Shown piece by piece: positions 8,185 through 62,166 of a stretch of DNA of 64,000 nucleotides. The notes beneath the pieces were generated by a model that had not been told where the DNA came from, ran no database searches, and saw only the letters and a list, made by a program, of their open reading frames with translations. Both the position numbers and the translations under genes were made by a program. Source of the stretch: Escherichia coli (GTDB lineage: Bacteria; Pseudomonadota; Gammaproteobacteria; Enterobacterales; Enterobacteriaceae); assembly GCF_024502345.1 (NCBI RefSeq), contig NZ_JALDNN010000001.1. One strand, 5' to 3'. Each line of letters opens with the position of its first letter. The stretch's first letter is position 1.

Positions 8185-8285
<101 letters not shown>

Positions 8286-9416: not shown

Positions 9417-9483
9417 TCTCATCTTTGCTAATGCGAGGCTGGAGCCATCCAGCCTGAAATGACTGATAACGTGATCGTTGGTC

Positions 9484-9578
<95 letters not shown>

Positions 9579-9608
9579 TCTGGCAATTATACGTTTGTCA
9601 CCATCACA

Positions 9609-20144: not shown

Positions 20145-20220
20145 GCCCGGATAGCTCAGTCGGTAGAGCAGGGGATTGAAAATCCCCGTGTCCTTGGTTC
20201 GATTCCGAGTCCGGGCACCA
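20145..20220 (+). tRNA. pheU: tRNA-Phe (GAA anticodon)
   Basis: 76-nt GCCCGGATAGCTCAGTCGGTAGAGCAGGGGATTGAAAATCCCCGTGTCCTTGGTTCGATTCCGAGTCCGGGCACCA with anticodon loop TTGAAAA and 3-prime CCA; position after yjdC corresponds to pheU. Confidence 0.97.
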
Positions 20221-41031: not shown

Positions 41032-42200
41032 GCGAGTTGAGTTATCTGGAAAAATTGCTGGATGGGGTTGAGGTTGAGTGGAAATCATTGGGAGATGTTG
41101 TAAATTTTCAGCGCGGAAGGCGGCTCGTAAAATCTCAGTTAGAAACCAGAGGTAAATATGCGGTTTACCAAAACAGCATGACACCACTCGGTTACTATCA
41201 TGAGTATAATGTCGCAGCTCAATCTTCGTTCATTATCTGTGCGGGTGCAGCCGGTGAAATTGGTTATAGCGAAAATGAATTTTGGGCTGCCGACGATGTT
41301 CATTTCGCAATCACACCAGAATATATAAATGACAGGTTTTTGTTTCATTTTTTGTTGACGCAAAAGAATAAAATTTCAGGACAAGTACGCCGTGCCAGTA
41401 TTCCGCGTCTCTCAAAGTCAGTAATTGAAAAACTTGAATTCCCCATCCCCTGCCCGGATAATCCGGAAAAGTCCCTTGCCATCCAGTCTGAAATCGTTCG
41501 GATTCTGGATAAATTTACTGCACTTACCGCTGAGCTTACCGCTGAGCTTAACATGCGTAAAAAACAGTACAACTACTATCGCGACCAGTTGCTGAGTTTT
41601 GATGAGGGTGAGGTTGAGTGGAAGGCTTTGGAGGAAGTCTCAACTTTTGCTAATGGAAAGGGGCATGAAAAAGACATATCAGAAGACGGTAAATATATTG
41701 TTGTAAACTCTAAGTTTATATCTACCAATGGCGAAGTCGCCAAGTTATCAAACAAACAGCTATGCCCTCTTTTTAAAGACGATATTCTTTTGGTTATGAG
41801 TGACCTGCCCAATGGCAAAGCACTTTCAAAAACATTTATTGTTGATGAAGATCATAAATACACTTTAAACCAACGTATTGGTGGAATTACAGTAAAAAAC
41901 AGTAATGAATTACTCCCTAAGTTTTTGCACTATTTTTTAAATAGAACCCCGCAATTGCTGAAACATGACAATGGTGTTGATCAAACAAATTTGCGTAAAG
42001 GTCAAATACTTGAAGTAAAAATACCAATAATTTCACTCATCAAACAAGTTCAGATCGTTGAAACTCTTGATAAATTCGATACTTACACTAAGTCGATTTC
42101 AGAAGGCCTCCCGCGCGAAATCGAGCTGCGCCATAAACAGTACGAGTACTATCGTGATTTATTGTTCAGCTTCCCGAGACCAGAAACCGCCAGCAACTGA
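41028..42200 (+). CDS. hsdS: type I restriction-modification system specificity subunit
   Basis: 390-aa ORF with two target-recognition halves and repeated conserved segments (EVEWKSL...[15 protein letters not shown]; EVEWKAL...[15 protein letters not shown]); start overlaps the hsdM stop. Confidence 0.9.
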
Positions 42201-42316
42201 CGGACCATTGATACCGGCAGGGTTTGTTCTCACCCGCCCGGTATCAGGCTTTAAGAATGCCGGAAGATGCTTCTGATACCCTTCCGGAATTTGCCAGATG
42301 ACGCACAGGATGCACC

Positions 42317-45300
42317 ATGACACAACAGATACACACCATTGCTGAATCCAATAACTTTATCGTCCTTGATAAATACACCAAAGTTCTGGAGAACGGCGAC
42401 AGCTACCAGAGCGAATCGGATCTTGAGCGGGAACTGATTCAGGACCTTCTGAATCAGGGCTATGAATTTATATCCGTTAAGTCACCGACAGCGATGCTGG
42501 CGAATGCACGGGACCAGCTTCAGCATCTTAATGGTGTGGTGTTTAACGAAAGTGAATGGCGGCGCTTCGCAGAGCAGTATCTGGACAGCCCCAGTGACAG
42601 CAGCCTGGACAAAACTCGTAAAATCCATATCGACTATATCTGTGATTTCACGTTTGATGACGGTCGTCTGGAAAACATCTATCTGATAGATAAAAAGAAC
42701 CTGCTGCGCAATAAGGTGCAGGTCATTCAGCAGTTTGAACAGACCGGCTCACACGCTAACCGTTATGACGTCACCATTCTGGTTAACGGCCTGCCACTGG
42801 TGCAAATCGAACTCAAAAAGCGCGGCGTGGCTATTCGTGAAGCCTTTAACCAGATACACCGTTACAGCAAGGAAAGCTTTAACAGCGACAACTCCCTGTT
42901 TAAATACCTGCAACTGTTTGTGATATCTAACGGAACCGATACCCGGTACTTTGCCAGTACCACTAAGCGGGATAAAAACAGCTTTGATTTCACCATGAAC
43001 TGGGCGAAGTCGGATAACACTCTGATTAAGGACCTGAAGGACTTTACCGCCACCTTCTTCCAGAAACATACCCTGCTGAATGTTCTGTTTAATTACAGCG
43101 TGTTTGACAGCAGCCAGACTCTGCTCGTCATGCGCCCCTATCAGATTGCCGCCACTGAGCGAATCCTCTGGAAAATTAACAGCTCATTTAAAGCGAAGAA
43201 TTGGTCAAAACCCGAAAGCGGCGGGTTTATCTGGCATACCACCGGGTCAGGCAAAACCCTGACCAGTTTTAAGGCTGCACGACTGGCAACCGAACTGGAC
43301 TTTATAGACAAAGTCTTCTTCGTGGTCGACAGAAAAGACCTTGATTACCAGACAATGAAGGAGTATCAGCGCTTTTCTCCGGACAGCGTCAACGGTTCGG
43401 ATAATACAGCAGGCCTCAGAAGAAACCTGGATAAGGACGATAACAAAATCATCGTCACAACCATTCAGAAACTCAATAACCTGATGAAAGCCGAAGCTGA
43501 CCTGCCCGTCTATCAGCAGCAGGTAGTGTTTATCTTTGATGAGTGTCACCGCAGCCAGTTTGGTGAGGCCCAGAAAAACCTCAAAAAGAAATTCAGACGC
43601 TTTTATCAGTTTGGTTTTACCGGTACGCCTATTTTCCCGGAAAATGCACTGGGGGCAGAAACCACAACCAGCGTGTTCGGGCGTGAGTTACATTCTTACG
43701 TCATTACTGATGCGATTCGTGATGAAAAAGTACTGAAGTTTAAGGTGGACTATAACGATGTCCGCCCACAGTTTAAGTCTCTTGAAACGGAAACAGACGA
43801 GAAAAAACTCAGCGCGGCTGAAAACCAACAGGCATTTTTGCACCCCCTGCGTATCCAGGAAATAACGCAATACATTCTCAATAACTTCCGGCAGAAAACA
43901 CACCGAACCTTCCCGGGAGCTAAGGGCTTTAACGCCATGTTAGCAGTTAGCAGCGTGGACGCGGCGAAAGCTTATTACACGACGTTTAAAATGCTACAGG
44001 AAGAAGCAGAGAAGAAATCTGGCAGCTATAAATGCCTTCGGGTGGCAACCATCTTCTCCTTTGCTGCAAATGAAGAGCAAAGCGCCATTGGTGATATTAC
44101 TGACGAAAGCTTTGATACCAGTGCAATGAACAGCAGCGCGAAGGAATTCCTGGATTCAGCCATTGATGACTATAACAATCACTTTAAAACCAATTTCAGC
44201 ACCGACAGTAACGGTTTCCAGAACTACTACCGCAATTTAGCTCAACGAGTGAAAAATCAGGATATTGACCTTCTCATCGTGGTGGGAATGTTCTTGACTG
44301 GCTTTGATGCCCCGACGCTTAACACTCTTTTCGTTGACAAAAACCTCCGTTATCACGGCCTGATGCAGGCATTTTCCCGCACAAACCGTATCTATGATGC
44401 CACCAAAACCTTCGGCAATATCGTGACTTTCAGGGATCTGGAGCGTCCGACCATTGATGCCATCACACTATTTGGCGACAAAAACACCAAGAATGTGGTG
44501 CTGGAAAAAAGCTACGAAGAGTACATGCAGGGCTTTACCGATGCGGCAACCGGTGAGGCTAAACGAGGTTTTATGGCTGTTGTTTCGGAGCTGGAGCAGC
44601 GCTTCCCTGACCCTGCCAGTATCGACAGTGAAAAAGAGAAAAAAGCCTTCGTCAAACTGTTTGGTGAATATCTGCGGGCAGAAAACATCCTGCAAAACTA
44701 TGATGAATTTGCCACGCTGAAAGCCCTGCAGAAGGTTGATATTAGTGACCCGGAAGCGGTAGAAACCTTTAAAGCAGAGCACTATGTGGATGATGAAAAA
44801 TTTGCTGAATTACAAACCATTCGTCTCCCGGCAGAACGTAAAGTTCAGGACTATCGCTCAGCATACAATGATATCCGGGACTGGCAGCGACGCGAAAAAG
44901 CATCAAACGACAGGGATAAATCAACCACAGACTGGGATGACGTGGTGTTTGAAATTGACCTGCTGAAGTCGCAGGAAATTAACCTGGATTACATCCTTGG
45001 TCTGATTTTCGACCACAATCGTCAGAAAAAAGGTAAAGAAGCCCTGACTGAAGAGGTCAGACGCTTAATCCGCTCAAGTCTGGGCAACCGTGCCAAAGAA
45101 GGTCTGATTGTTGACTTTATTCAGCAAACTAACCTTGATGACATGCCGGACAAGGCCAGTATCATTGATGCATTCTTTACCTATGCTCAGCGTGAACAGC
45201 AACGGGAAGCAGAGGCGTTGATTAAGGAAGAAAACCTCAATGAAGAGGCTGCAAGGCGCTATATCCGCACATCACTAAAACGGGAGTATGCCACCGAAAA

Positions 45301-45433
45301 TGGGACGGAGCTAAATGAGACGCTACCAAAGCTCAGTCCGCTGAATCCTCAGTACAAAACGAAAAAGCAGACTGTATTCCAGAAAATTGGGGCATTTATC
45401 GAAAAATTTAAAGGGGTTGGAGGACACCTCTAG
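42317..45433 (+). CDS. hsdR: type I restriction enzyme R subunit (helicase/endonuclease)
   Basis: 1038-aa ORF with helicase motifs RPYQ, TGSGKT and DECH (IFDECHRSQ). Confidence 0.9.
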
Positions 45434-45654: not shown

Positions 45655-45993
45655 ATGAGCGTAACTATAAAAGACGATCGACTCCGTACCATCGCTACCT
45701 TTGACGGTAAAACCCTGAAAGACGACCGGCTCAGGACCATCGCAACGTTTGACGGTAAAACCCTGAAAGACGACCGGCTCAGAACCATCTCAACTTTTGA
45801 CGGTAAAACCCTGAAAGACGACCGACTCCGCACCATCGCTACCTTTGATGGCAAGACCCTGAAAGACGATCGACTCCGCACCATCGCAACATTTGATGGT
45901 AAAACACTTAAAGACGATCGACTCAGAACCATCGCGACAGTTAATGGTAATGTTAGTATTGTTGTTTTGGCGTTTGCTGCTCGGCTATTTTAG
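45655..45993 (+). CDS. hypothetical tandem-repeat protein
   Basis: ORF after AGGAGA with five full and one partial 16-aa repeats (DDRLRTIATFDGKTLK), encoded by 48-bp tandem DNA repeats; could instead be a non-coding minisatellite. Confidence 0.4.
   Translation: MSVTIKDDRLRTIATFDGKTLKDDRLRTIATFDGKTLKDDRLRTISTFDGKTLKDDRLRTIATFDGKTLKDDRLRTIATFDGKTLKDDRLRTIATVNGNVSIVVLAFAARLF
45667..45960. repeat. 48-bp tandem repeat array, about six copies
   Basis: Near-identical units AAAGACGAYCGRCTCMGNACCATCGCNACNTTTGAYGGYAARACCCTG repeated head to tail. Confidence 0.85.
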
Positions 45994-46270: not shown

Positions 46271-46319
46271 GGGATTGAAAATCCCCGTGTCCTTGGTTCG
46301 ATTCCGAGTCCGGGCACCA
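46271..46319 (+). repeat. 49-bp direct repeat of the tRNA-Phe 3-prime end (island junction, att-site core)
   Basis: GGGATTGAAAATCCCCGTGTCCTTGGTTCGATTCCGAGTCCGGGCACCA is identical to tRNA-Phe positions 20172..20220. Confidence 0.95.
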
Positions 46320-46333
46320 AATTCATATCAACG

Positions 46334-46358
46334 GACCTCCACGGAGGTCCGTTTTTCG
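46334..46358 (+). terminator. hairpin terminator after the partial tRNA copy
   Basis: GGACCTCC-ACG-GAGGTCCG followed by TTTTTCGTTT. Confidence 0.7.
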
Positions 46359-46516
46359 TTTCAGAACGCCACAATTTAAGCGTTCTGCCTCCAAATCAAT
46401 TCTACCGAACTCAACCAGATTCCCCCCACATCAACCCCATTGTGTGGGTATAATTGCGGGTATACCCCAGTTCGACAGAATTTGTACCCTCTTTAACGCA
46501 TTCAGAAGGCTGAACT

Positions 46517-47782
46517 ATGGCACTGACTGACGCAAAAATCCGGGCTGCAAAGCCCACTGACAAGGCTTATAAACTCACTGACGGGGCCGGCATGTTCCTG
46601 CTGGTTCATCCTAATGGTTCCCGTTACTGGCGTCTCCGTTATCGTATTCTGGGTAAGGAGAAAACCCTGGCACTTGGTGTGTATCCGGAAGTTTCTCTCT
46701 CCGAAGCTCGTACAAAACGGGATGAGGCCCGAAAACTGATTTCGGAGGGGGTTGACCCTTGCGAACAGAAAAGAGCTAAAAAAGTAGTCCCTGATTTACA
46801 ACTCTCTTTTGAACATATTGCACGACGCTGGCATGCCAGTAATAAACAATGGGCACAATCACACAGCGATAAAGTACTCAAAAGCCTCGAGACACACGTT
46901 TTCCCCTTTATCGGCAACCGGGATATCACAACACTCAGTACCCCGGACCTGCTTATCCCTGTTCGTGCTGCAGAAGCTAAACAAATTTATGAAATCGCCA
47001 GTCGTCTGCAGCAAAGAATATCTGCTGTAATGCGTTATGCCGTACAGTCTGGCATCATCAGATATAACCCGGCTCTGGATATGGCTGGTGCATTGACCAC
47101 GGTAAAACGCCAGCATCGCCCTGCTCTGGATCTTTCACGCCTGCCTGAACTTCTGTCGCGTATTGACGGTTATAAAGGCCAGCCTGTCACCCGACTGGCA
47201 GTTATGCTGAATTTACTGGTTTTTATTCGTTCCAGTGAACTCAGATATGCCCGCTGGTCTGAAATTGATATTGACAATGCCATGTGGACTATTCCAGCCG
47301 AACGCGAACCTCTGCCAGGCGTAAAATTTTCATACCGGGGCTCCAAGATGCGAACACCACATCTTGTGCCACTCAGCCAACAGGCTGTAGCCATACTGGC
47401 AGAACTTCAGACATGGGCAGGTGAAAATGGTCTGATCTTTACGGGAGCACATGACCCACGTAAACCAATCAGTGAAAACACCGTAAATAAAGCCCTGAGG
47501 GTTATGGGGTATGACACAACCCAGGATGTCTGTGGTCATGGATTCCGGGCGATGGCATGTAGTGCATTAATAGAATCAGGTTTGTGGTCCCGCGATGCTG
47601 TGGAACGCCAGATGAGCCATCAGGAGCGTAATGGTGTACGTGCTGCGTATATCCATAAAGCCGAACATCTGGAAGAACGTCGACTTATGCTACAGTGGTG
47701 GGCCGATTTTCTGGATGCAAACAGAGAAAGATTTATCAGTCCATTTGAATATGCAAAGATTAATAATCCATTAAAACAATAA
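46517..47782 (+). CDS. P4-type tyrosine integrase
   Basis: 421-aa ORF MALTDAKIRAAKPTDKAYKLTDGAGMFLLVHPNGSRYWRLRYR (P4-like arm-binding N-terminus) and catalytic HGFRAMA...RAAYIH; 197 bp after the tRNA-derived repeat. Confidence 0.9.
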   Translation: MALTDAKIRAAKPTDKAYKLTDGAGMFLLVHPNGSRYWRLRYRILGKEKTLALGVYPEVSLSEARTKRDEARKLISEGVDPCEQKRAKKVVPDLQLSFEHIARRWHASNKQWAQSHSDKVLKSLETHVFPFIGNRDITTLSTPDLLIPVRAAEAKQIYEIASRLQQRISAVMRYAVQSGIIRYNPALDMAGALTTVKRQHRPALDLSRLPELLSRIDGYKGQPVTRLAVMLNLLVFIRSSELRYARWSEIDIDNAMWTIPAEREPLPGVKFSYRGSKMRTPHLVPLSQQAVAILAELQTWAGENGLIFTGAHDPRKPISENTVNKALRVMGYDTTQDVCGHGFRAMACSALIESGLWSRDAVERQMSHQERNGVRAAYIHKAEHLEERRLMLQWWADFLDANRERFISPFEYAKINNPLKQ

Positions 47783-48103
47783 TCCTCCCGGGAAAATGCC
47801 CGGGAACCACCCGGGGATTATTTTTTGTTAAAAAAGGCAAAACGATATTAACTGATGTATTAAATGTTTACCGGATTGCTCCCTGCAGGTGGATTATCAG
47901 AATCCGCAGTTATTCGTTATTTATATATATTCAATAAAAAGAAACATCATAAAAAATCCCGCACCCACAGGGTGATGCGGGATAACTGACGTAAGGAATG
48001 CTGCCGGGATTTGGTGGTCCCTTGTGCTGATATGAATACAGGTTCTATTCTATACAGAATCCTTTTCAGTACAAGAGACTGTATTACAGTTTGCCATATA
48101 TGA

Positions 48104-49603
48104 TTACCTGTGGTCCGGAAGAATAAGTGGCTGCGGTTTCAGACTGTCTGCCGGCACATTTTTCTCTCCGTTAAAAACCATAACGGGTTCATTATCTTCG
48201 TCTGTCAGCGGATTGAATGGCGGTATATTTTCGGTACGAATACCGGTCAGCCACTGAAAAATGCCTGCGAAATTACGGGCACTGATTTTCCTGCTGACGG
48301 ACTGATGAGACGTGATGTCACTGGCGGTAATAATCAGGGGAACGCTGTAGCCCCCCTGCACATGACCATCATGATGAACAGGATTAGCACTGTCGCTGAC
48401 CGACAGCCCATGGTCAGAAAAGTAAAGCATTGCAAAGTGACGGGAATGCCGGCGAAGGATACCATCAAGCTGATCGAGAAAGTTATCCAGTTTACTGATG
48501 CTGGCGAGGTAACAGGCAATCTTTCGGGGATACTGCTCCAGGTAATAATTCGGCCAGGAGTTAAGTCGGTCACACGGATTCGGATGAGAGCCAATCATGT
48601 GCAGGAAAATCACCTTCGGCGAGGATTTATCCGCCAGCGCACGTTCTGTTTCCTGTAACAACAACATGTCATCCGTTTTACGGGAAGCGAAGCTGCCTTT
48701 CTTGAGGAAAACGGTATGCTCCGCATCAGAAGCAATAACAGAGATGCGTGTGTCATGCTCTCCCAGTTTTCCCTGATTGGATATCCACCATGTGCTGTAT
48801 CCTGCTTTTGCTGCCAGCGCCACCACGTTGTTGCCGGAGTCAGGGTTCTGCTCATAGTCATAAATCAGTGTCCGGCTCAGGGAAGGTACGGTACTGGCTG
48901 CTGCCGATGTATAGCCGTCAATAAATAAACCGGGAGCCGTATTCAGCCATGGTGTGGTTGGCACGGGATAGCCATATACCGACATATAATCCCTGCGCAC
49001 ACTCTCACCAGTAACGATAACAATCGTGTCATACAACGGTGTTCCCGGCAGGATTTTCCAGTTGTCAGCCCCGTGCTGACTCAGTTGTTTATAACGCTGC
49101 ATTTCACGCAATGTGTCAGTTGTTCCCACAACAATTCCTTTAACCATCCGCAACGGCCAGCTGTTTACAGAGCATAATACGAACAGCAGCAGTGCCAGCC
49201 AGTTACGGTGACCGCGGTGGTGTGTCCGCCAGAAAATCACCATGAATACCAGAATCGCGGCACTGACCAGAAAATGATAAACAGGAATCATCCCGGTAAA
49301 CTCTGCAGCCTCATCAGCCGTGGTCTGCAGCAACGCGACAATAAAACTGTTGTTGATTTTACCGTACGTCATACCCGCAGGCGCATACAGTGCACAACAG
49401 AACAGAAATAACAGCGTTGTAATGGATGTGAGGGTATTTCTGTGTGCAAGGAGAAGAAGGAGAAACAGAAGCAGCACATTTCCTGTGGCATTCTTCTCAG
49501 TGTATCCGCATGCAATTGTGATTATCACAGAAATAACAAAAAAGAATAAAAACAATAAAATCCGGGGTGTGTCGCCCGGACAAAACAGTTTTCTGATATT
49601 CAT
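48104..49603 (-). CDS. phosphoethanolamine-transferase-like membrane protein (sulfatase family, EptA-like)
   Basis: 499-aa ORF with N-terminal transmembrane region and sulfatase-domain motifs LHMIGSHPNP and YFSDHGLS. Confidence 0.7.
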   Translation of the reverse strand: MNIRKLFCPGDTPRILLFLFFFVISVIITIACGYTEKNATGNVLLLFLLLLLAHRNTLTSITTLLFLFCCALYAPAGMTYGKINNSFIVALLQTTADEAAEFTGMIPVYHFLVSAAILVFMVIFWRTHHRGHRNWLALLLFVLCSVNSWPLRMVKGIVVGTTDTLREMQRYKQLSQHGADNWKILPGTPLYDTIVIVTGESVRRDYMSVYGYPVPTTPWLNTAPGLFIDGYTSAAASTVPSLSRTLIYDYEQNPDSGNNVVALAAKAGYSTWWISNQGKLGEHDTRISVIASDAEHTVFLKKGSFASRKTDDMLLLQETERALADKSSPKVIFLHMIGSHPNPCDRLNSWPNYYLEQYPRKIACYLASISKLDNFLDQLDGILRRHSRHFAMLYFSDHGLSVSDSANPVHHDGHVQGGYSVPLIITASDITSHQSVSRKISARNFAGIFQWLTGIRTENIPPFNPLTDEDNEPVMVFNGEKNVPADSLKPQPLILPDHR

Positions 49604-49762
49604 CGGAGTATATCGACAACATTATTATGAAGAGAACAGGATAATAAAAATCAGAAATTATCTGTAAAACAGATAACAGACAACCCTGCAGTATAATTAC
49701 TGCAGGGTGTTTCCTTTTAATTACAGAAGATAAGTAATTATTATCTTTCAGGAGCAGTTTCG

Positions 49763-50503
49763 TCAGAAGTTATAAGTCACACCAAGCATGATGTCATGAC
49801 TTTTAACATCAACCTCTGATTTATATTTATCGCCCCACTCATCCTTGTAACTCACACTGCTGTCACCTGCATCAATATAGCGATAGCTGAGGTCAAGAGC
49901 GATATCCGGGGTTACGTCATAACGGACACCAGCCCCAAGGCTCCATGCAAAGTTGTCAGCAGAGTCTGAGTGTGACAACGACTCACGCCCACTGTACCCG
50001 TACCCGTAATCCCAAGTACTGATACCAGTTGTTTTCTGATGAATTCTGGCGTAACCAATCCCTGCGGATACCCATGGTGTGAATGCACTGTCGTTCCGGA
50101 AGTCATAGTACGTATTCAGCATCAGAGTGTTGACTGACACTTCATTCTTCAGGTCATCACGCCAGTAACCACCTGACCAGCTGTCTTTATCTACGTTATA
50201 CTTCGAATCAGCTTTTCCACGCGCGTAAAACTCCAGTTCTGTACGAACCGGAATACTGAACTGCGGATAAAAATCATAACCGGCCGCAATACCGCCACTG
50301 AATACCGTATCATGGTCATCGCCGCCTTTATACTTTGACGTTTCTTCCTCATCTCCTGACAGGAAACGCTGGTCTGAAAGTGACACCACAGAGGCACCGG
50401 CTTTACCGGTCAGATAAAAACCGCTTTTACCTTCCTCAGCACCTGCATTTGCTGCAAATACACAGGCTGCGGCCACCACTGAAACAGCAAAAACCTTTTT
50501 CAT
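49763..50503 (-). CDS. outer-membrane beta-barrel protein
   Basis: 246-aa ORF with signal peptide MKKVFAVSVVAAACVFAANAGA, alternating aromatic/hydrophilic strands and C-terminal ...GVTYNF. Confidence 0.7.
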   Translation of the reverse strand: MKKVFAVSVVAAACVFAANAGAEEGKSGFYLTGKAGASVVSLSDQRFLSGDEEETSKYKGGDDHDTVFSGGIAAGYDFYPQFSIPVRTELEFYARGKADSKYNVDKDSWSGGYWRDDLKNEVSVNTLMLNTYYDFRNDSAFTPWVSAGIGYARIHQKTTGISTWDYGYGYSGRESLSHSDSADNFAWSLGAGVRYDVTPDIALDLSYRYIDAGDSSVSYKDEWGDKYKSEVDVKSHDIMLGVTYNF

Positions 50504-50937
50504 TTCAATTATCTCCGTTATTGCTCCGTTGCTGCAAGCAGTACTCAGTGCATTTTAAAACCCGCCATGCGATAGTCTCAATTGAATAAAATCGATCGAA
50601 TCGATAGATGATATCGATCGTCATTAACCAGAAATTTTTATCGTATTCAGTCAGCACAGATACAACAAATGCATGCCATGCAGACAGTCATACCCGGCAA
50701 CAACAGCAGATGGTTGCTGAGCAAGCAGGGAGTGAGGCTGAATCCCGGGGAAGAAAAAACCTGTAAAATTTGTTTATTCTGCCAGGAGATAAAAGTGACG
50801 TGTGTTCATGTAACACACCAGGGACGAAAGATGCATGGACTGACAGTTTGGGGGATATGATGCAACTACAGACCAAAGTGTGAATCAGTATGACCCGGGC
50901 CAGAGTTTGTGCGGTTTCTTTATATAAAAAAGCCCAC

Positions 50938-51374
50938 GGTAATGACTCCAACTTATTGATAGTGTTTTATGTTCAGATAATGCCCGATGACTTTGTCATG
51001 CAGCTCCACCGATTTTGAGAACGACAGCGACTTCCGTCCCAGCCGTGCCAGGTGCTGCCTCAGATTCAGGTTATGCCGCTCAATTCGCTGCGTATATCGC
51101 TTGCTGATTACGTGCAGCTTTCCCTTCAGGCAGGATTCATACAGCGGCCAGCCATCCGTCATCCATATCACCACGTCAAAGGGTGACAGCAGGCTCATAA
51201 GACGCCCCAGCGTCGCCATCGTGCGTTCACCGAATACGTGCGCAACAACCGTCTTCCGGAGCCTGTCATACGCGTAAAACAGCCAGCGCTGGCGCGATTT
51301 AGCCCCGACATAGCCCCACTGTTCGTCCATTTCCGCGCAGACGATGACGTCACTGCCCGGCTGTATGCGCGAGG
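50938..51374 (-). mobile_element. truncated IS1 (right end and 3-prime part of insB)
   Basis: Begins with IS1 terminal sequence GGTAATGACTCCAACTTATTGATAGTG; minus-strand ORF 50953..51330 encodes the InsB C-terminal portion ([22 protein letters not shown]...); IS1 similarity stops near 51374. Confidence 0.85.
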
Positions 51375-51445
51375 TTACCTGCTCCCCGTTGATTAATACA
51401 CCGTGATGTTAGTAATGTCTTCATAAGCCACATGAGGACATCCCC

Positions 51446-51709
51446 ATGAAGAAGCGTTTTTCCGACGAACAGATCATATGTATTCTCCGCGAGGCCGAAG
51501 CTGGCGTTTCTGCCCGTGAGCTCTGCCGTAAGCACGCCATTTCCGACGCCACCTTTTACACATGGCGTAAGAAGTATGGCGGTATGGAGGTGCCTGAGGT
51601 TAAGCGCCTGAAGTCGCTTGAGGAAGAGAACGCCAGACTCAAGAAGCTGCTTGCCGAAGCCATGCTGGATAAAGAGGCGCTTCAGGTGGCTCTTGGGCGA
51701 AAGTACTGA
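51446..51709 (+). CDS. IS3-family transposase OrfA (HTH)
   Basis: 87-aa [52 protein letters not shown]. Confidence 0.85.
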
Positions 51710-51732
51710 CGACAGACCAGAAGCGGGAAGCC

Positions 51733-52566
51733 GTGATGTTGATGTGTGATGCGACCGGTCTGTCGCAACGTCGTGCCTGCAGGCTTACAGGTTTATCCCT
51801 GTCGACCTGCCGCTATGAGGCTCACCGTCCGGCTGCTGATGCGCATTTATCAGGGCGCATCACTGAGCTGGCACTGGAGCGCAGGCGTTTTGGCTACCGT
51901 CGTATTTGGCAGTTGCTGCGCCGTGAAGGGCTTCATGTTAATCATAAGCGCGTGTACCGGCTTTATCACCTCAGTGGCCTGAGCGTAAAACGCAGAAGAC
52001 GTCGTAAAGGGCTGGCAACAGAACGTCTGCCGCTGCTCCGTCCGGCGGCGCCCAATCTGACCTGGTCGATGGATTTCGTCATGGACGCACTTTCCACCGG
52101 TCGCAGGATCAAGTGTCTTACCTGCGTCGATGATTTCACAAAGGAATGCCTGACGGTCACTGTTGCCTTTGGGATTTCAGGCGTTCAGGTCACGCGTATT
52201 CTGGACAGCATTGCACTGTTTCGAGGCTATCCGGCGACGATAAGAACTGACCAGGGGCCGGAGTTCACTTGCCGTGCACTGGATCAATGGGCCTTTGAGC
52301 ATGGTGTTGAGTTGCGCTTAATCCAGCCGGGCAAGCCAACGCAGAACGGATTTATTGAGAGCTTTAACGGACGATTTCGCGATGAATGTTTGAATGAGCA
52401 CTGGTTCAGCGATATCGTTCATGCCAGGAAAATTATTAATGACTGGCGGCAGGATTATAACGAATGCCGCCCGCACTCCACGCTGAATTATCAGACACCG
52501 TCTGAATTTGCAGCGGGCTGGAGAAAGGGTCATTCTGAGAATGAAGATTCCGACGTTACTAACTGA
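51733..52566 (+). CDS. IS3-family transposase OrfB (DDE catalytic domain)
   Basis: 277-aa ORF with integrase-core segments TWSMDFV, TDQGPEF and [16 protein letters not shown]; probably expressed as an OrfAB frameshift fusion. Confidence 0.85.
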
Positions 52567-52812
52567 GTGTTGTATCTAATCGTGGGGGCAGGTCACTCGA
52601 CTTGGTTCCATTAAAAACCATGAAGTTGATATAGGGTCAAGATTTTATACGATATACACATCAAGCATCTTGCATGAGTCGCACTGACTGACCCGGGTTA
52701 GTTACCATCATATTCTTTATGGTTGAGACCATACGGAAATCAGTGAATTAAAAATATTTATTCATCCAAAACACAAATGGTTTTAAGAAAGCCTAATGCC
52801 CTTCTTGTAAAA

Positions 52813-53082
52813 TTATTCAAGATAGTCAAGTATGTTTTTTATATTGTCAATTAAGGCGACATGCAGGTCAGGGTCATCACATTCATCTGAATGGCAATAG
52901 GAAATATGTTGAAGTATAATTCTTTTTTTGAATTCACTAACTGTACACTCCAACTCATACACCGACCGTACGATATCAATACAAGGTTCATCATCGATTA
53001 AAAAATCCTGCATTTTATTATACTTATCAGTCAGATCTTCTATCATAGAAATTAATACGGGGTCATTAACTAACATTGGCAT
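52813..53082 (-). CDS. hypothetical small protein
   Basis: About 89 codons from MPMLVNDPVLISMIEDL with upstream AGGAGA; downstream of and co-oriented with the AraC-family gene. Confidence 0.4.
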   Translation of the reverse strand: MPMLVNDPVLISMIEDLTDKYNKMQDFLIDDEPCIDIVRSVYELECTVSEFKKRIILQHISYCHSDECDDPDLHVALIDNIKNILDYLE

Positions 53083-53488
53083 ATCTCTCCTCATAATCTG
53101 AAAGTAAAGATGGACACAGCGCTGATAAATTCCAATTCCCTTGCTTGCGGTACCGACCGGGAGGAAGATGAAACTTGTTTTTAAAAGCTCTCGTGAAAGT
53201 TTGTTGCGAATTAAAACCATACTGAAGTGCAATGTCTAGGACTGTTCTGGAAGTCAATTTCAGATCAATCGCAGCACATGATAATCGACGAGCACGAACA
53301 TATTCACCCAGCGCAACACCGGTCGTCTGTTTAAACAAACGTTGAAAATGCCATCGTGAATACCCAGACTTCTCAGCAATAAATTCTACTGGCAAGGTTG
53401 TATTCAATGAACTTTCAACCCACTGCAAAATATCTTTGACAACACTTTCAGAATATTTCCTGGTGTCCATTCTCTCCCCCCAAACCAT
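53066..53488 (-). CDS. AraC/XylS-family transcriptional regulator (MarA/SoxS-like)
   Basis: ORF with paired HTH segments LPVEFIAEKSGYSRWHFQRLFKQTTGVALGEY and DIALQYGFNSQQTFTRAFKNKF. Confidence 0.8.
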   Translation of the reverse strand: MVWGERMDTRKYSESVVKDILQWVESSLNTTLPVEFIAEKSGYSRWHFQRLFKQTTGVALGEYVRARRLSCAAIDLKLTSRTVLDIALQYGFNSQQTFTRAFKNKFHLPPGRYRKQGNWNLSALCPSLLSDYEERYANVS

Positions 53489-53562
53489 ATTCTATGAATA
53501 TATTCAAACCAGAATACGGTCTCTGAGTCTGTCATCCATGAAGAACTCAGGGACCCAACTCT

Positions 53563-56064
53563 TTATTTTCGTAATAACCTCAGGCCATTTGCCACAACCA
53601 GAAGACTGGCACCAACATCAGCAAATACAGCCATCCACATAGTTCCCATTCCCATGAGCGTGAGTACAAGGAATACGGCTTTAATACCTAGAGCGAGGCT
53701 GATATTTTGCACGAGTAAGCTGTACGTTTGTCGGGATAATTTTACAAAGGCTGGGATTTTACGCAGGTCATCATCCATTAAGGCTACATCTGCAGTTTCA
53801 ATCGCCGTATCAGTACCCATTGCGCCCATAGCAAAACCGATATCAGCTGCAGCCAGAGCCGGTGCATCATTGATACCATCACCAACCATCCCAGTGATTC
53901 CAATCCGTGAATGCTCTTCAACTGCACGATGTTTATCTTCTGGCAATTGATTCCCTCGAGCCTCATCGATTCCAACCTGAGATGCGATTGCTTTAGCTGT
54001 ATGTGGGTTATCACCAGTCAGCATAATAGTTTTAACGCCAAGTTCATGAAGTTGTTCAATCGCTTCACGGCTGCTGTTTTTAACAGTATCAGCAACAGCG
54101 AACAACCCAAGCACTTGCTTACCATCATTGAGTAAAATAACTGTTTTACCCTGGCTTTCCAGCCTTTGTACTGTTGCTTTAATCTCTGATGGACAATTAA
54201 AGTGTTCTTCAGTCAAACGCAGGTTACCAAGGTAAAAATCCTTACCTGTAATCGCGCCATGCACACCTCGCCCAACAATCGCTTCAAAGCTGTCAACATC
54301 CTGCTTTTTCAAATCAGCAGAAGCATTCACAATTGCCAGTGAAACAGGGTGATCAGAGTAACTAGCGAGACTAGCTGCAGTAGTACGAACTTCACGCTCG
54401 CTCCACCCATTGAATACCATTACGTCGGTTTGTACTGGTTTCCCATAGGTAATAGTTCCTGTTTTATCCAGCGCAAGGGCTTTTAGCTTACGTCCCTGCT
54501 CAAGATAAACACCGCCTTTAATGAGAATCCCTTTGCGAGCAGCTGCAGTAAGTCCACTAACAATCGTTACTGGCGTAGAAATAACCAGGGCACATGGACA
54601 CGCAATGACAAGCATAACTAAAGCTTTATAGATCCACTCCTGCCATGTTCCTGCCCCAAACAATGGTGGCAATACAGCAACCGCAACAGCAATACCCATA
54701 ACGACGGGGGTATAAATCTGGGAAAAGCGGTCAACAAAACGTTGTGTAGCTGCTTTGGCGCCTTGCGCCTGCTCAACGGCATGAATGATGCGAGCAAGGG
54801 TTGTATTATTTGCAGCTGCAGTGACTTTATATTCAAAAGAGCCTGACTGATTTATTGTTCCAGCAAATACAGCATCGCCCGCAATTTTATCGACAGGCAT
54901 ACTTTCACCTGTAATTGGAGCTTGGTTAATGGTGGTTTGGCCTTTGACGATTTCTCCGTCGAGACCAATTCGTTCACCTGGTTTTACCCTGACAATACTG
55001 CCCGGTTGTACGCTACTGGCGTCAACTTCCTGCCATGTTCCATCAGCTTGTTGGACCATTGCAGTTTCAGGAGTCAGGTTCATCAGGGAACCTATTGCAT
55101 TTCTGGCTCTATCAAGTGATTTGGCTTCTATCAGCTCGGCAATGGTGAATAACACCATAACCATCGCCGCTTCTGGCCACTGCCCAAGGACCAAAGCCCC
55201 AGTAACGGCAATACTCATTAGTGCATTGATATTCAAGTTGCCATTGCGAATCGAAATCCAACCTTTTTTGTAGGTTGTCAGACCACAAGAAAGCACTGCT
55301 ATCAAAGCCAACCCAGCTTCTAGCCAGTCAGGCATATCAGCCCAGTGCATCACTTCGGCTGCAAGAGCAGCTACGCCAGCAAGAGCTAATGGCCACCAGG
55401 GCTTTTTTTTCTCCTGGGTATTTTTCTTGCCGCTAGTATTATCAGAGACTTCTGGCGCGAATCCCAACGAGCGAATTGCAGCCATGATAGCTTCAAGCGA
55501 ATCCGGTGTATGGGTTACAGTCAAAACACGCTGCATCAGGTTGAAATCAAGCTCTTTAACAGCGCTCATTCCACCCAGTTTCTTTTTGATAAGATTTTCT
55601 TCAACAGGACAATCCATCTGCATAATGCGAATTTCTGTCCGTAATCCACCAGCCACAACCTGCGAGCCCCCTAGGCTACTCAATTGTTCTGGAGCAGCGG
55701 AGCAACAATCCCCCTCATGGCCGTGATCGTGGCCTTCATGAGAATGCTCTTGCGCGGCATGAGCATGGTTACATCCCTTATGATTATGCTCATCATGCGA
55801 ATGCCCTTCGCCGCCATGGCTATGGGCATCATGATTATGGCCTTCATGGTTATGGCCTTCATGGTTATGACCTTCATGGGAATGATCATCACTGCATTTC
55901 TTGTGATTATGAGCCTGCTGATCATGTGCATGATCATTTGCTTTATGTGATTCACCAGTATTCTTAACCCGGAGTCCTGTCCCTAAATTGAACGTTTCAC
56001 AGCAACTAGCCGCTTCGTCTCCTGCAGGGTTTTTGCTATTTTTTACACCACCACTCATTTTCAT
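53563..56064 (-). CDS. heavy-metal-translocating P1B-type ATPase (Zn/Cd/Pb-type, ZntA/CadA-like) with His-rich N-terminus
   Basis: 833-aa ORF with His-rich N-terminal repeats (HEGHNHEGHNHEGHNH), metal-binding DCP motif, membrane CPC motif (VIACPCALV), phosphorylation site DKTGT and GDGINDAP. Confidence 0.85.
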   Translation of the reverse strand: MKMSGGVKNSKNPAGDEAASCCETFNLGTGLRVKNTGESHKANDHAHDQQAHNHKKCSDDHSHEGHNHEGHNHEGHNHDAHSHGGEGHSHDEHNHKGCNHAHAAQEHSHEGHDHGHEGDCCSAAPEQLSSLGGSQVVAGGLRTEIRIMQMDCPVEENLIKKKLGGMSAVKELDFNLMQRVLTVTHTPDSLEAIMAAIRSLGFAPEVSDNTSGKKNTQEKKKPWWPLALAGVAALAAEVMHWADMPDWLEAGLALIAVLSCGLTTYKKGWISIRNGNLNINALMSIAVTGALVLGQWPEAAMVMVLFTIAELIEAKSLDRARNAIGSLMNLTPETAMVQQADGTWQEVDASSVQPGSIVRVKPGERIGLDGEIVKGQTTINQAPITGESMPVDKIAGDAVFAGTINQSGSFEYKVTAAANNTTLARIIHAVEQAQGAKAATQRFVDRFSQIYTPVVMGIAVAVAVLPPLFGAGTWQEWIYKALVMLVIACPCALVISTPVTIVSGLTAAARKGILIKGGVYLEQGRKLKALALDKTGTITYGKPVQTDVMVFNGWSEREVRTTAASLASYSDHPVSLAIVNASADLKKQDVDSFEAIVGRGVHGAITGKDFYLGNLRLTEEHFNCPSEIKATVQRLESQGKTVILLNDGKQVLGLFAVADTVKNSSREAIEQLHELGVKTIMLTGDNPHTAKAIASQVGIDEARGNQLPEDKHRAVEEHSRIGITGMVGDGINDAPALAAADIGFAMGAMGTDTAIETADVALMDDDLRKIPAFVKLSRQTYSLLVQNISLALGIKAVFLVLTLMGMGTMWMAVFADVGASLLVVANGLRLLRK

Positions 56065-56139
56065 TGCCTCATCTGTTAACTATACTGACGATTAAAGACC
56101 CTAATCTAACTAGAGGGTCAAGCGCATAAGGGGGGAGGC

Positions 56140-56592
56140 ATGAAAATTGGTGAATTGGCCCGTAAGGCGGATTGTCCGGTGGAAACTATTCGGTACTATG
56201 AGAAAGAAGGATTACTTCAGGCTCCATTAAGAGATATTGAAAATAACTATCGCCGTTACAACAATACTCATCTGGAAAAGTTATTATTTATCCGACGCTG
56301 CCGCTCTCTTGATATGACCCATGAGGAAATACGTGCATTGCTACTGGCAATGAATAATCACGGTAAAGACTGTGGCCCCATTGATGCAATAATCAGTGCC
56401 CATCTCACTCATGTTCAGCATCGTATTAAAGAATTAATAGCCCTGGAAATACAACTCAAAGAACTTAATAACTATTGCAGCTCAGACCGGAGCGTGGACG
56501 AATGCGGGATAGTACAGAAATTGACTGCTGATGAAGAGAATGGTGATCTTCCTTTAACCGTACCAACTGACCACTTGGGGGGTGTGCATTAG
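56140..56592 (+). CDS. MerR-family metal-responsive regulator (ZntR/CadR/PbrR-like)
   Basis: 150-aa ORF with N-terminal HTH MKIGELARKADCPVETIRYYEKEGLL and C-terminal cysteines; divergent from the Zn/Cd/Pb-type ATPase. Confidence 0.8.
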   Translation: MKIGELARKADCPVETIRYYEKEGLLQAPLRDIENNYRRYNNTHLEKLLFIRRCRSLDMTHEEIRALLLAMNNHGKDCGPIDAIISAHLTHVQHRIKELIALEIQLKELNNYCSSDRSVDECGIVQKLTADEENGDLPLTVPTDHLGGVH

Positions 56593-56681
56593 TGGTGTGC
56601 GCTTATAAGTTGATTAGACTGATGGCGTAACACAAGCCCATACAGCTTTGTGCTACGCCATCATGCCCTTAAAATAAGGGG

Positions 56682-57146
56682 TCAGGCTTTTTCCATTTCG
56701 TTACCACGAGAACGACGTTGCACTGCCCCTTCTCTCTTACCGGGATGGCTTTTAGCATCAGCGGTCATTAATGTCTGGAGTATTGGGCATTCAACTCGCT
56801 CATCCCCAGCACAGCTTTTGATCAGAGCTCTGAGTGTATCTGCCATTCGTCGCATATTTTCCATACGTCGCTCTAAATCATCCATATGCTCTTGTGCCAG
56901 ACGTTTAACATCGGCGCTCTGGCGAGATTTGTCATTCCATAACTTGAGCAAATCGGCTATCTCTTCAAGAGAAAAACCAAGATCGCGCGCACTGCGGATA
57001 AAAATCAGACGATGGACATCATTGGGTGCATAATCACGGTAGCCCGCTTCGGTACGGCCAGTAGCAGGAATCAGACCAATTTGCTCGTAATAGCGAATCA
57101 TCTTTGCGGAGATTCCTGATTCGTTCGATGCTTTACCAATGTTCAT
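56682..57146 (-). CDS. MerR-family Cu/Au-responsive regulator (CueR/GolS-like)
   Basis: 154-aa ORF from MNIGKASNESGISAKMIRYYEQIGLIP with C-terminal metal-binding cysteines (CAGDERVECP); directly downstream of and co-oriented with the CopA-like ATPase. Confidence 0.8.
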   Translation of the reverse strand: MNIGKASNESGISAKMIRYYEQIGLIPATGRTEAGYRDYAPNDVHRLIFIRSARDLGFSLEEIADLLKLWNDKSRQSADVKRLAQEHMDDLERRMENMRRMADTLRALIKSCAGDERVECPILQTLMTADAKSHPGKREGAVQRRSRGNEMEKA

Positions 57147-57159
57147 AGCTCCCCTTTTC

Positions 57160-59655
57160 TTAGTGCTCAGAGTCTTCTGCCAGCGGAGGCTGGAACCGAC
57201 GCAAACGAAGTGCGTTGCCCAGGACAAATACACTGGATAGCGCCATCGCGCCTGCAGCAAAGATTGGTGAAAGCAGCAATCCATAGGCAGGGTACAGCAG
57301 GCCTGCTGCTACAGGGATCAATGCGGCATTATAACCAAACGCCCAAAAAAGATTTTGCCTGATGTTACCTATGGTTGCCTTAGACAATCCAATAGCATTA
57401 GGCACACCCTGTAGGTTGCCGGACATTAAGACAACATCAGCAGATTCCACCGCTATATCGGTACCTGTACCAATTGCAAGCCCAATATCTGCCACGGCTA
57501 AAGCTGGGGCATCATTAATGCCATCACCAACATAAGCGACCTTACCGTAAGACTCCTTCAACCGACGAACTGCTTCAACTTTCCCTTCTGGCAACACTTC
57601 GGCAACCACTTCATCAATACCAAGCTGTCTCGCAATCGCATTTGCTGTATTGGCATTGTCACCGGTAATCATTGCGACTTTGAGCCCCAGTTGGTGCAAT
57701 GCATTTATGGCAATCGGCGTACTTGATTTAATAGGGTCAGCGACTGCGATAATGGCAGCCAGACGTCCATCAATAGCAACATAGAGTGGCGATTTTCCTT
57801 CGTTTCCAAGGCGTATCGCAGTCTTTGAAAAATACTCGATATCCAAGCCTAACTCACGCATAAATCGATCGGCCCCGACCTCTACGCGCTCTCCGTCTAC
57901 GGTAGCCCTGACGCCCATCCCAGTAATTGAATCAAACTCAGTCAACGCTGGCAGCGATATCTCTTTTCCTAGAGCAGCTTCAACGATAGCGCGGGCAATA
58001 GGATGTTCCGAACGTGATTCAACAGCGGCAACTTTTGCTAATACTAAGTCAAGCTCAAACCCTTCGGCCAACTCCAGGTCTGTCATTACTGGGCGCCCTT
58101 CAGTCAAAGTACCTGTTTTGTCTACAGCGACAACCCTGGCATCTTTAAGCAACTGCAGAGCTTCTCCCTTACGGAACAAGATCCCCATTTCTGCACCACG
58201 CCCAGTACCTACCATGATAGAGGTTGGGGTAGCCAATCCCATTGCACATGGGCAGGCAATGATCAATACAGCCACGGCATTAACCAGTGCGAAAGACAGG
58301 GCCGGTGATGGCCCAAATGTTAACCAGGCAAGGAAAGTTAACAACGCTGCCAGCATCACCACAGGAACAAACCATAATGTCACCTTATCGACCACGGCTT
58401 GTATAGGTAGTTTAGAGCCCTGGGCTTGCTCTACCATTCTGATTATTTGTGACAACATCGTCTGGCCACCAACGGCTGTTGCACGCAACCTCAATGCTCC
58501 TTTCTGGTTAACAGTCCCGCCAACCATTAAGCTTCCGGGAACTTTCTCGACGGGGATAGGCTCCCCCGTTATCATCGATTCATCGACAAAACTTGTTCCT
58601 TCACTCACCTCACCATCAACAGGTATCCGCTCACCTGGTCGAACTTCGATAATGTCATCAAGGGCTACATCACTAATGGGAATATCGATGACAATGCCGT
58701 TACGCAGCACATGCGCCTCTTTGGCCTGCAATCCAACCAAACGCTTGATAGCCTCAGACGTTCGACCTTTAGCTCGCGCCTCCATAAATCGTCCTAAAAG
58801 AATAAGAGCGACGATTACCGCAGCAGCTTCGTAATACACATTGACGGTACCTTGAGGCAAAAGACCTGGAGCAAAGGTCGCAATCATTGAATAACCGAAT
58901 GCAGCGAGAGTCCCGACGGAGACGAGAGAGTTCATGTCTGGGCCAAGTCTTAATAACGCGGGAATACCTTTCAGGTAAAAGCGCCGCCCCGGAATAGCCA
59001 ACACCAGCAATGTTAATACAAACTGGAGATACCAGCTTTCCTGGAGCCCAATGGTATCCATTATCCATTGATGCATTCCCGGTATCACATGCGACCCCAT
59101 TTCCAGAATAAATACTGGTAACGCAAGTACGGTCGCCAGAACTAAATCTTTCTTCAACGCAACCTTTTCAGCATCTTTTTTTTCTGCGGCACTATCATTA
59201 TTCTGGCTTTGGTTATCAACCAGGCTGGCTTCATAACCGATTTTTTCGATAGCAGTTATGAGGTCATCAACTCCTGCGGTTCCACGTACAGTAGCTCTTT
59301 CAGTCGCTAAATTAACAGTGGCTTCTTTTACACCTTTAACCGCTCGGAGCGATTTTTCGACACGCCCTACGCATGATGCACATGTCATGCCCTGAACTGA
59401 TAACTCTACAGAAGCTTGAGGAACCTCATAACCAACCTTTTCAACTGCTTCAACCAACGCCATACGATTAACGAATGCATTTAGGCGGATATCTGCACGC
59501 TCTGTTGCAAGGTTAACGCTTACGTTTTGTACGCCTTCAACCTTAGCCAGAGCGGCTTCAACTCGTCCAACGCAGCTTGCACAAGTCATTCCCTCAATGG
59601 GCAAGCTGACTTGAGTTTCACCATCATTAGAATGCTGTTTTTTTTGAATGCTCAT
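57160..59655 (-). CDS. copper/gold-translocating P1B-type ATPase (CopA/GolT-like)
   Basis: 831-aa ORF with two N-terminal heavy-metal-associated domains ([12 protein letters not shown] twice), CPC motif ([12 protein letters not shown]), DKTGT and GDGINDAP. Confidence 0.9.
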
Positions 59656-59840
59656 GATGTATTTCTCATCGTTATGGTCAGATAAAGAACAACCTTAAGG
59701 CTTACCATCGTGGGAAGGTCAAGCGCATTATTTTGAACATGCCGATGCCGTGGAAGGAATGGATATAAAAACCCTTTACATGAACACATATTCATATGTT
59801 ATATTGAAGGCATCATGTATAACCAACCGCTTGAGGCCCT

Positions 59841-60845
<1,005 letters not shown>

Positions 60846-60890
60846 TCAGGCCTCTGGTGATGCACTATCAATTTAGGAGGGAGAATCATA

Positions 60891-61253
60891 ATGTCCAGCA
60901 CATCAGATTGCGGCAACATACAAGACTGTTCCGCGACAGATCATGTCGCGGAGCCAGATCTATCAATGCTCTCGCAAAACGACATTGGGCAACTTTCCGA
61001 GATTTTCCATCTACTGGGGGACCAGTCAAGACTACGAATCCTGCTTTACTGTATGCGTGGTTCGGTCTCTGTAGGCGACATTGCTGAGTCGCTCCAGTTA
61101 TCACAATCTCTGGTCAGTCATCATCTGAGGTTGTTACGAAGTGCAAGGCTTGTTCGCGGAGAGAGAAAGGGTAAGTACATATTTTATAGCATAATGGATC
61201 ACCATGTAAGTCATGTTCTTCAGGACATGGTATTTCACATAGCTGAAGAATAA
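60891..61253 (+). CDS. ArsR/SmtB-family metalloregulatory repressor
   Basis: 120-aa ORF with HTH segment GDIAESLQLSQSLVSHHLRLLRSARLV. Confidence 0.75.
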   Translation: MSSTSDCGNIQDCSATDHVAEPDLSMLSQNDIGQLSEIFHLLGDQSRLRILLYCMRGSVSVGDIAESLQLSQSLVSHHLRLLRSARLVRGERKGKYIFYSIMDHHVSHVLQDMVFHIAEE

Positions 61254-61637
61254 CCCGAATGAATTTTGATAAGTAGAGCTTGTGTAATTCCAACTCACCT
61301 TAGTTTTTCATTACTTTGGTGAGTTGTTTCATCATTAATTTATTAAAACCTTAATAATTAACCTTTTAATAATGAAACCTGCCCCCTTCCCTTGTATGTA
61401 ATAAATACCTGATGGTTCACTATCACCAGATAAAGCGAAGTGAGCAGGCCACCTCATGAAGGAGAAACCTTGCTTTGCAAGCTTATTGAATAGCCACGGA
61501 TAATCTAGTTTGTCTGCTTCGTGCCAAAAGCGGACATTGCTACATCACAATGCGTTATGGTCAACATCAGAATGCAGCCCTTGTGTTGTGACGTGTAGTC
61601 TGGCCTAAACGCAGTTGCACTACATTACCTCGTGGGG

Positions 61638-61886
61638 TCAGCGACGGCCCCGTTTCAGTTCACGTACACAGGGATCATACTCATCTGCATAGCCACCAAA
61701 GTCATGGCTGGGCATGAAGTACCACTTTTCACCTTTCCAACCAGCGATCCGGGTGGTCGGTTTGGTTTTATTCAGAACAACAATACAGACGCCGACGGGA
61801 GACACTGGAGGAAGAAGTCGTTGCACCACACACTCACGATTGCCCACATCAATCCAGTCTTTGACGTGAATTTCAGGATGGTTCAT
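61638..61886 (-). CDS. hypothetical protein
   Basis: 82-aa ORF MNHPEIHVKDWIDVGNRECVVQRL; no family recognised. Confidence 0.35.
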   Translation of the reverse strand: MNHPEIHVKDWIDVGNRECVVQRLLPPVSPVGVCIVVLNKTKPTTRIAGWKGEKWYFMPSHDFGGYADEYDPCVRELKRGRR

Positions 61887-62166
61887 TGTTTATCTTCATG
61901 TGATGGAATTGCTTACCGTAATGCATCCGATTACCGTGCAAGATCATGTATCCTGTCGCCTTCCTGCTCCCTTGAGGTGGCGCTGCCTTGGTACAGTCAG
62001 CACTCTGAATGTCAGGCCCAGCCGCGAGGCCGGAAGCTCATCAGGTCGCTGCGGTAGGGGAAAACGGTCCGGGTAACAGACCGTAATCGCCTGCTGGTGG
62101 TTATTGGCCCTGACTGGAGCCGCACTGAAAACTGAAGCGCATTAATATACTCGCGCCTCCGACAGG

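Follow-up and report, generated by a model that had tools for sequence, protein, structure and literature searches.

The window analysed here, a stretch of 64,000 nucleotides of an Escherichia coli contig, contains a 1.66-kb feature made up of insertion sequence (IS) DNA. Its first part, at 50938–51379 on the minus strand, is a 442-bp fragment of IS1A (100% identity, no mismatch or gap), which comprises the right inverted repeat (IRR; 50938–50960, 23 bp, GGTAATGACTCCAACTTATTGAT) and the 3′ part of insB. In the alignment it corresponds to positions 1–442 of the reverse-oriented 768-bp element, or 327–768 in standard coordinates. The InsB coding sequence is represented by a 125-aa open reading frame at 50953–51330 (minus strand) that matches the Pfam family DDE_Tnp_IS1 (PF03400; E=1.5e-73, profile positions 7–131 of 131). 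Of the 23-bp inverted repeats found at both ends of IS1 the IRR alone is present; the fragment stops at IS1 nucleotide 327, without the left inverted repeat (IRL), insA, the 5′ part of insB or the programmed −1 frameshift site of InsAB′. A BLAST search of the whole window with complete IS1A returned this 442-bp piece and no other IS1 DNA, the left 326 bp included. The piece is a fragment of a family member rather than a complete element, and it is inert. A truncated IS1 copy (right end and 3′ part of insB) starting at 50938, with the rest of the element missing, had been described in the original prediction and is borne out on both points; the other end had been put at about 51374, which is within 5 bp of, but not at, the true end at 51379. 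E. coli genomes contain a median of approximately 10–11 IS1-matching places each.

The second part is an IS3-family element at 51377–52595 on the plus strand, which aligns to positions 3–1221 of the 1221-bp ISSen4 reference with 98.4% identity. It features an orfA at 51446–51709 (plus strand, 87 aa, HTH_Tnp_1), whose product is identical to ISKpn34 OrfA, and an uninterrupted orfB frame at 51673–52566 (plus strand, −1 relative to orfA; HTH_21, rve and rve_3). A helix-turn-helix orfA with a −1-frame orfB carrying the rve/DDE domain is the arrangement of the IS407-type members of the IS3 family, and RefSeq marks homologous copies with a programmed frameshift. At 100% over 442 bp for IS1 and 98.4% over 1219 bp for the IS3-family element, chance similarity is of no concern. 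The terminal repeats are imperfect (TTACCTGCTCCCC... versus TGACCTGCCCCC...). The right end is intact and reads ...GGGGGCAGGTCA, ending in GGTCA, after which comes CTCG; the left end has TTACC in place of TGACC. Intact ISKpn34 and ISSen4 both begin TGACCTGC / TGACCTGCTCCCC, and the IRL at this locus is TTACCTGC. The termini TG...CA are conserved in IS3-family elements; here the IRL lacks the G or the TG. Pfam searches and alignment thus agree with the earlier description of an adjoining IS3-family element with orfA and orfB, a DDE motif, imperfect repeats and IS407-type ends, and its predicted end at 52597 lies within 2 bp of the last aligned position, 52595.

The element lacks the 4-bp target duplication usual for its group: the right flank is CTCG (52596–52599), of which there is no copy at the left end, where the possible tetranucleotides are GAGG, AGGT or GGTT. 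Among intact copies of this IS group 16 of 45 have perfect 4-bp target duplications, each of which has a probability of 1/256 by chance. The other 29 of the 45 intact ISSen4/ISKpn34-type copies (metagenome loci L013–L066) have no such duplication, and several are mosaics (e.g. L026 and L044); judged from their sequences, the missing duplications and the mosaics suggest that recombination between copies of the group is frequent. CTCG, the right flank of the element studied here, is also the duplicated target in three of the metagenome loci (L014, L018 and L024).

Flanking DNA of two origins

The left flank is of E. coli origin. The segment 10471–20229 is E. coli chromosome, with 99% identity to strain ESBL 15 across groL...aspA-dcuA-cutA-dsbD-dicD-tRNA-Phe; upstream of groL, a self-BLAST comparison reports an imperfect inverted repeat of approximately 130 bp (8171–8297 and 9470–9597, 82%). 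Immediately before the IS1 IRR lies a 4.7-kb islet (46271–50937), which is 99.5% identical to E. coli 64A:C and stops exactly at the IRR. It consists of a tRNA-Phe 3′ repeat (46271–46327), a P4-type integrase (46517–47782, plus strand), a sulfatase/EptA-like, phosphoethanolamine (PEtN)-transferase-like gene (48104–49603, minus strand, 499 aa) and a gene for a beta-barrel outer-membrane protein (OMP; 49763–50503, minus strand, 246 aa), all three genes being assigned by Pfam. The islet joins IS1 in the same way in at least 18 complete E. coli genomes; three of these were inspected (64A:C, 181.1 and PE15), and each has a complete IS1 there. The pair of PEtN transferase and OMP genes is found at tRNA-Phe sites in many E. 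coli, in both pheU- and pheV-type contexts.

Between the chromosomal segment and the islet, and in tandem with this older islet, lies a 26-kb island (20172–46327) at tRNA-Phe (20145–20220), flanked by 58-bp direct repeats (20172–20229 and 46271–46327). Its defence-type genes are a SIR2-like and HerA/DUF87 pair (21072–24520), a DUF6602 gene, two tyrosine integrases and a DUF927 protein, together with a GmrSD/DUF262 nuclease (37394–39271) and a complete type I restriction-modification system, hsdM/S/R (39475–45433). The island also contains an IS5-family copy at 31424–32468 (IS903B-like, ~97%; transposase open reading frame 31480–32436, minus strand), which resembles three IS5-family copies near the metal region of the plasmid pKPN1481-1. 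Just past hsdR, before the second tRNA-Phe repeat is reached, 45670–45935 holds 5.5 tandem copies of a 48-bp unit (87% matches). A solitary stretch of approximately 50 bp at 20771–20820 (minus strand), 550 bp downstream of tRNA-Phe, is 84% identical to the ISSen4 left end (TGACCTGCTCTTCGTTGATTAGTACACC...); it has no IS body and is probably the relic of another IS407-type element.

The right flank is of plasmid type. A heavy-metal-resistance segment begins exactly at the IS end and occupies 52596–64000, with 100% identity over 11,405 bp to pKPN1481-1, an IncFIB/IncHI1B plasmid of K. variicola; over the initial 3.5 kb, identity is likewise 100% to 15 more large plasmids, from Klebsiella, Raoultella, Citrobacter and E. 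coli. Its genes encode an AraC-type regulator, two heavy-metal P-type ATPases, a CDF transporter and an ArsR/SmtB protein, as well as MerR-type regulators of Cd/Pb-responsive and Cu-responsive kinds. In the plasmid counterpart CTCG is the precise start of the homology, and what adjoins it on the opposite side is an lpxC-like gene, without an IS. The plasmid-like DNA extends to 64,000, the last base of the window, which thus shows one of the two joints to be expected. The proposal that the feature marks a rearrangement boundary or hotspot beside metal-resistance genes therefore describes a real boundary, with an E. coli left flank and a Klebsiella-plasmid right flank.

The junction between the IRR of the IS3-family element and the plasmid DNA, or a complete ISSen4 at CTCG by the metal region, is absent from 72,556 plasmids and 5,426 E. 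coli genomes, and equally from a set of one genome per GTDB species and from metagenome contigs. A 7-bp extension of a BLAST match past the IRR, apparently shared with the strains described below, was rejected as chance, as the flanks differ (CTCGACT versus CATCTAC).

The IS1::IS3 joint and its other carriers

The IS1 match ends at 51379 and the IS3-family match starts at 51377, so that the two overlap by 3 bp, ACC (51377–51379), common to IS1 (GGTTACCGACTG) and to the left end of the IS3-family element (TGACCTGC). The junction here reads ...GAGGTTACCTGC / ...GCGCGAGGTTACCTGCTCCCC; IS1 itself goes on ...GAGGTTACCGACTGCGG. The IS3-family element has lost its terminal TG or, equivalently, a single G if the insertion followed GAGGT. 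With the left tip damaged and the 4-bp duplication absent, the joint is not that of a clean transposition.

A 301-bp probe across the joint was searched against 5,426 complete E. coli genomes and was found as one contiguous match in five of them. Identity is 100% in NMBU_W05E18, ESBL 15 and PSS-11, and 96.7% in ET729 and LR-28, where the shortfall consists of IS1 polymorphisms; among GTDB representatives the IS1::ISKpn34 joint has no match. In all five carriers the element is annotated as ISKpn34 with the note ‘programmed frameshift; internal stop’, and the joint is followed on the right by the same small hypothetical gene and then by a BREX-1 system (brxL, pglZ, pglX onward). One orfB nonsense codon (ESFN*RFRDE) and one form of damaged IRL are common to all the BREX-linked copies (L005, L006, L008, L009 and L010). 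The literature retrieved for ISKpn34 and ISSen4 consists of routine resistance-plasmid reports, none of which concerns the IS1::ISKpn34 joint.

To the left of the IS1 IRR the carriers are diverse, with four different flanks among the five. The 442-bp IS1 piece itself comes in three sequence mosaics: that of NMBU_W05E18 and ESBL 15 has 15 differences, none of them beyond the outer 170 bp; that of ET729 and LR-28 has 18, of which 17 fall in the inner half; and that of PSS-11 has a single difference. Such flanks and mosaics are what would be expected, on sequence grounds, from repeated homologous exchange with other IS1 copies. As five other chromosomes have the identical joint, in other contexts and always with BREX, it is older than the present locus. 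The BREX-linked ISKpn34 has been immobile and has been inherited together with the BREX-1 island, while the sequence beyond its IS1 side has gone on changing.

An ISKpn34/ISSen4 chimera

The IS3-family element is composed of two types. The intact ISKpn34 copy of pEC732_IMP14, which has a 4-bp duplication and was used as the ISKpn34 reference, differs from ISSen4 at 149 of 1221 sites (87.8% identity). The first informative sites (51396–51632) are all (18/18) of the type found in the BREX-linked ISKpn34 of NMBU_W05E18, ESBL15, PSS-11, ET729 and LR-28, whereas the later ones (51655–52582) are of the ISSen4 type at 130 of 131 positions, a switch along the element with a Fisher p of ~3e-22. The lone exception, 51982, is polymorphic among ISSen4 copies, as is 51632; the crossover interval was accordingly widened from 51633–51654 to 51599–51654. 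The ISKpn34-derived 5′ part (51377–51598, plus strand) thus contains the damaged IRL and most of orfA, the interval 51599–51654 is the same in both parents once the polymorphic site is allowed for, and the ISSen4-derived 3′ part (51655–52595, plus strand) contains the end of orfA, the whole of orfB with its rve/DDE domain and the intact IRR. The stretch 51599–52595 is 100% identical to an intact ISSen4 copy from the metagenomes (L054), all 18 mismatches lying at or before 51598. The crossover lies where the parents are most alike: identity is 95–97% per 100-bp window at 51525–51725, compared with 87.8% overall.

By the ISfinder convention, copies with more than 95% identity along their whole length are isoforms, and the overall figure of 98.4% would by itself place the element with ISSen4. 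The differences from ISSen4, however, cluster in the 5′-most 220 bp, and every one is of the ISKpn34 type; this distribution is that of a chimera rather than of a drifted ISSen4 isoform. The type switch is single, it is accompanied by the switch of flanks from E. coli on the left to Klebsiella plasmid on the right, and there is no duplication, a combination which identifies an inter-IS hybrid. Directly observed are the anatomy of the feature, the joint that it shares with other genomes, its chimeric make-up and the different origins of its flanks.

The chimera combines OrfA of ISKpn34 with OrfB of ISSen4, both uninterrupted; the stop in orfB of the BREX-linked ISKpn34 copies is absent. With both proteins intact it would probably still make transposase. 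As a unit, however, it has probably lost the capacity to transpose, since the TG...CA ends of the IS3 family are conserved and its IRL is damaged. The chimera has no full-length match in the collections searched: identity reaches at best 98.6% in the 5,426 E. coli genomes and likewise in the 72,556 plasmids, and 99.18% at the closest of 54 metagenome loci. These 54 loci were retrieved with a 52-mer across the crossover and were discarded as evidence of the hybrid, being ordinary ISSen4-like copies that match through the polymorphism of 51632 in ISSen4.

Proposed history, alternatives and known parallels

The 1.66-kb feature is likely to be a recombination scar of three pieces, one that includes an exchange between two ISs, rather than a single insertion. 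The pieces would be the right 442 bp of IS1A, the first ~220–280 bp of an ISKpn34 copy with its left terminal G or TG missing, and the remaining ~940–1000 bp from an ISSen4 copy whose right end is intact. We infer the order and mechanism of events as follows. An old, non-canonical fusion would have linked an internal point of IS1 to the ISKpn34 tip, either by illegitimate recombination at the ACC microhomology or by a normal insertion with subsequent loss of one base and of the distal half of IS1, and the resulting joint circulates in E. coli beside a BREX island. Exchange within the shared 442 bp of IS1 may then have set the joint beside the int–PEtN transferase–OMP islet, which normally ends in a complete IS1. 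Homologous recombination between ISKpn34 and ISSen4, with the crossover at 51599–51654, would have completed the structure. The ISSen4 partner would have inserted at CTCG in DNA identical to Klebsiella IncHI1B/FIB plasmids, and the 3′ part of ISKpn34, together with whatever followed (in each of the five known carriers, the BREX island), would have been swapped for the metal-resistance DNA of the plasmid. As the element itself is an ISKpn34/ISSen4 recombinant, the changed right-hand context is attributed to recombination between ISs and not to transposition plus deletion.

An intermediate with the order OMP, IS1 fragment::ISKpn34 and BREX was present in no genome searched. A candidate route to it in strain PE15, by inversion between the complete IS1 next to the gene for the OMP and an oppositely oriented IS1 fragment at the distal end of the BREX island, was rejected, as the brxL end there has neither ISKpn34 nor an IS1 fragment. 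Since mosaicism is common in the ISSen4/ISKpn34 group, as in L026 and L044, part of the chimera pattern could be older than the present locus.

According to the original prediction, transposition of the IS3-family element into an IS1 already present here was accompanied by an adjacent deletion that removed the left half of IS1. IS1 does stop exactly where the IS3-family element starts, and its left half is missing from the window; moreover, with the OMP|IS1 junction shared by at least 18 related E. coli, and the IS1 complete in three of three examined, a loss relative to that state has occurred. Nevertheless the tip of the IRL is missing, a 4-bp duplication is absent, and the chimera breakpoint coincides with the change of genomic context. 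The same joint recurs in five other chromosomes, where the left flanks differ and BREX lies on the right; by this recurrence the model is largely refuted, and we regard it as very unlikely. The claim of an insertion here that truncated IS1, with its accompanying deletion, is accordingly unsupported.

Two other explanations we hold to be highly improbable. Merging during assembly of a chromosomal IS1 fragment::ISKpn34 with a plasmid ISSen4, the metal region being truly plasmid-borne, would account for a right flank that is 100% identical to plasmids over 11.4 kb, for a type switch within at most 56 bp that are identical in both IS types, and for the occurrence of the hybrid and of the IRR|plasmid junction in no other record. 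However, the window runs unbroken across multicopy repeats (the IS1 fragment, the IS903B-like copy and the 1.2-kb IS), as is typical of long-read assembly, and for this reason an assembly chimera is unlikely; a 1.2-kb IS with 12% divergence is unambiguous to long reads, and the ISSen4 3′ part and the IRR|CTCG junction are internally consistent. The polarity might alternatively be reversed, with an older chimera of which the BREX-linked copies are recombinants, or the chimera might be a pre-existing mobile isoform that was captured. Intact, mobile, ISSen4-like copies with partly ISKpn34-like 5′ regions do exist in metagenomes (L026 and L044). The BREX-linked copies, however, are 99.4–99.5% identical over their full length to the intact, target-duplicated ISKpn34 of pEC732_IMP14, which makes them a pure parental type, and an intact copy of the chimera was found nowhere in the collections searched. 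Recombination between ISKpn34 and ISSen4 copies, following on an old joint, is the reading that we prefer.

A more speculative extension, to which we give minimal weight, is that the joint of the IS1 fragment with ISKpn34 constitutes a conserved ‘portable homology’ module for the repeated exchange of cargo at tRNA-Phe islands. Such a module would comprise the right end of IS1 and a one-ended IS3 element, and its cargo would be BREX in five strains and metal resistance here; exchange might be aided by transposase of IS1 or IS3, supplied in trans to those ends that survive. The varied left contexts and the mosaic IS1 sequences are compatible with a module of this kind.

In the preferred reading, the scar is the boundary at which DNA identical to that of Klebsiella IncHI1B/FIB plasmids, with its Cd/Pb/Zn and Cu efflux ATPases, CDF transporter and regulators, became fixed in an E. 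coli chromosome, the link between plasmid and chromosome having been made by recombination of two different but related ISs. For annotation, the appropriate label would be an IS1 fragment with an ISKpn34/ISSen4 hybrid that has a defective left end, and not an IS3 insertion into IS1. The unique hybrid and the IRR|CTCG junction could serve as lineage markers for epidemiology. Neither the components nor the mechanism is of a new kind, and the significance beyond bookkeeping is small.

Comparison with the parent elements summarizes what the locus has kept. It shares with IS1A 442 bp at 100% nucleotide identity, with the 23-bp right inverted repeat and the 3′ region of insB, but keeps only nucleotides 327–768 of 768, the IRL, insA and frameshift site being gone. 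The IS3-family part resembles ISSen4 in overall identity (98.4%), in OrfB, in the IRR and in its 1221-bp architecture, and differs in the 17–18 ISKpn34-type substitutions of the 5′ 220 bp, in an IRL without G or TG and in the lack of a target duplication. With the ISKpn34 copies beside BREX it has in common the IS1::IS3 joint, the first ~220–256 bp and OrfA, all identical, whereas from 51655 on it differs from them at approximately 130 sites, following ISSen4, and plasmid-like metal-resistance genes take the place of BREX downstream.

IS homology is a classical entry route of plasmid DNA into chromosomes. In the formation of Hfr strains, IS copies of the F plasmid recombine with chromosomal ones, and hybrid ISs are left at novel joints. 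By analogy, the structure described here would be of the same type, in that related IS copies on different replicons appear to have recombined, leaving a hybrid IS with no duplication at the boundary of chromosome and plasmid DNA. It would differ from an Hfr-type fusion in that the partners are 88% identical, separately named ISs, and in that the window shows only one of the two joints.
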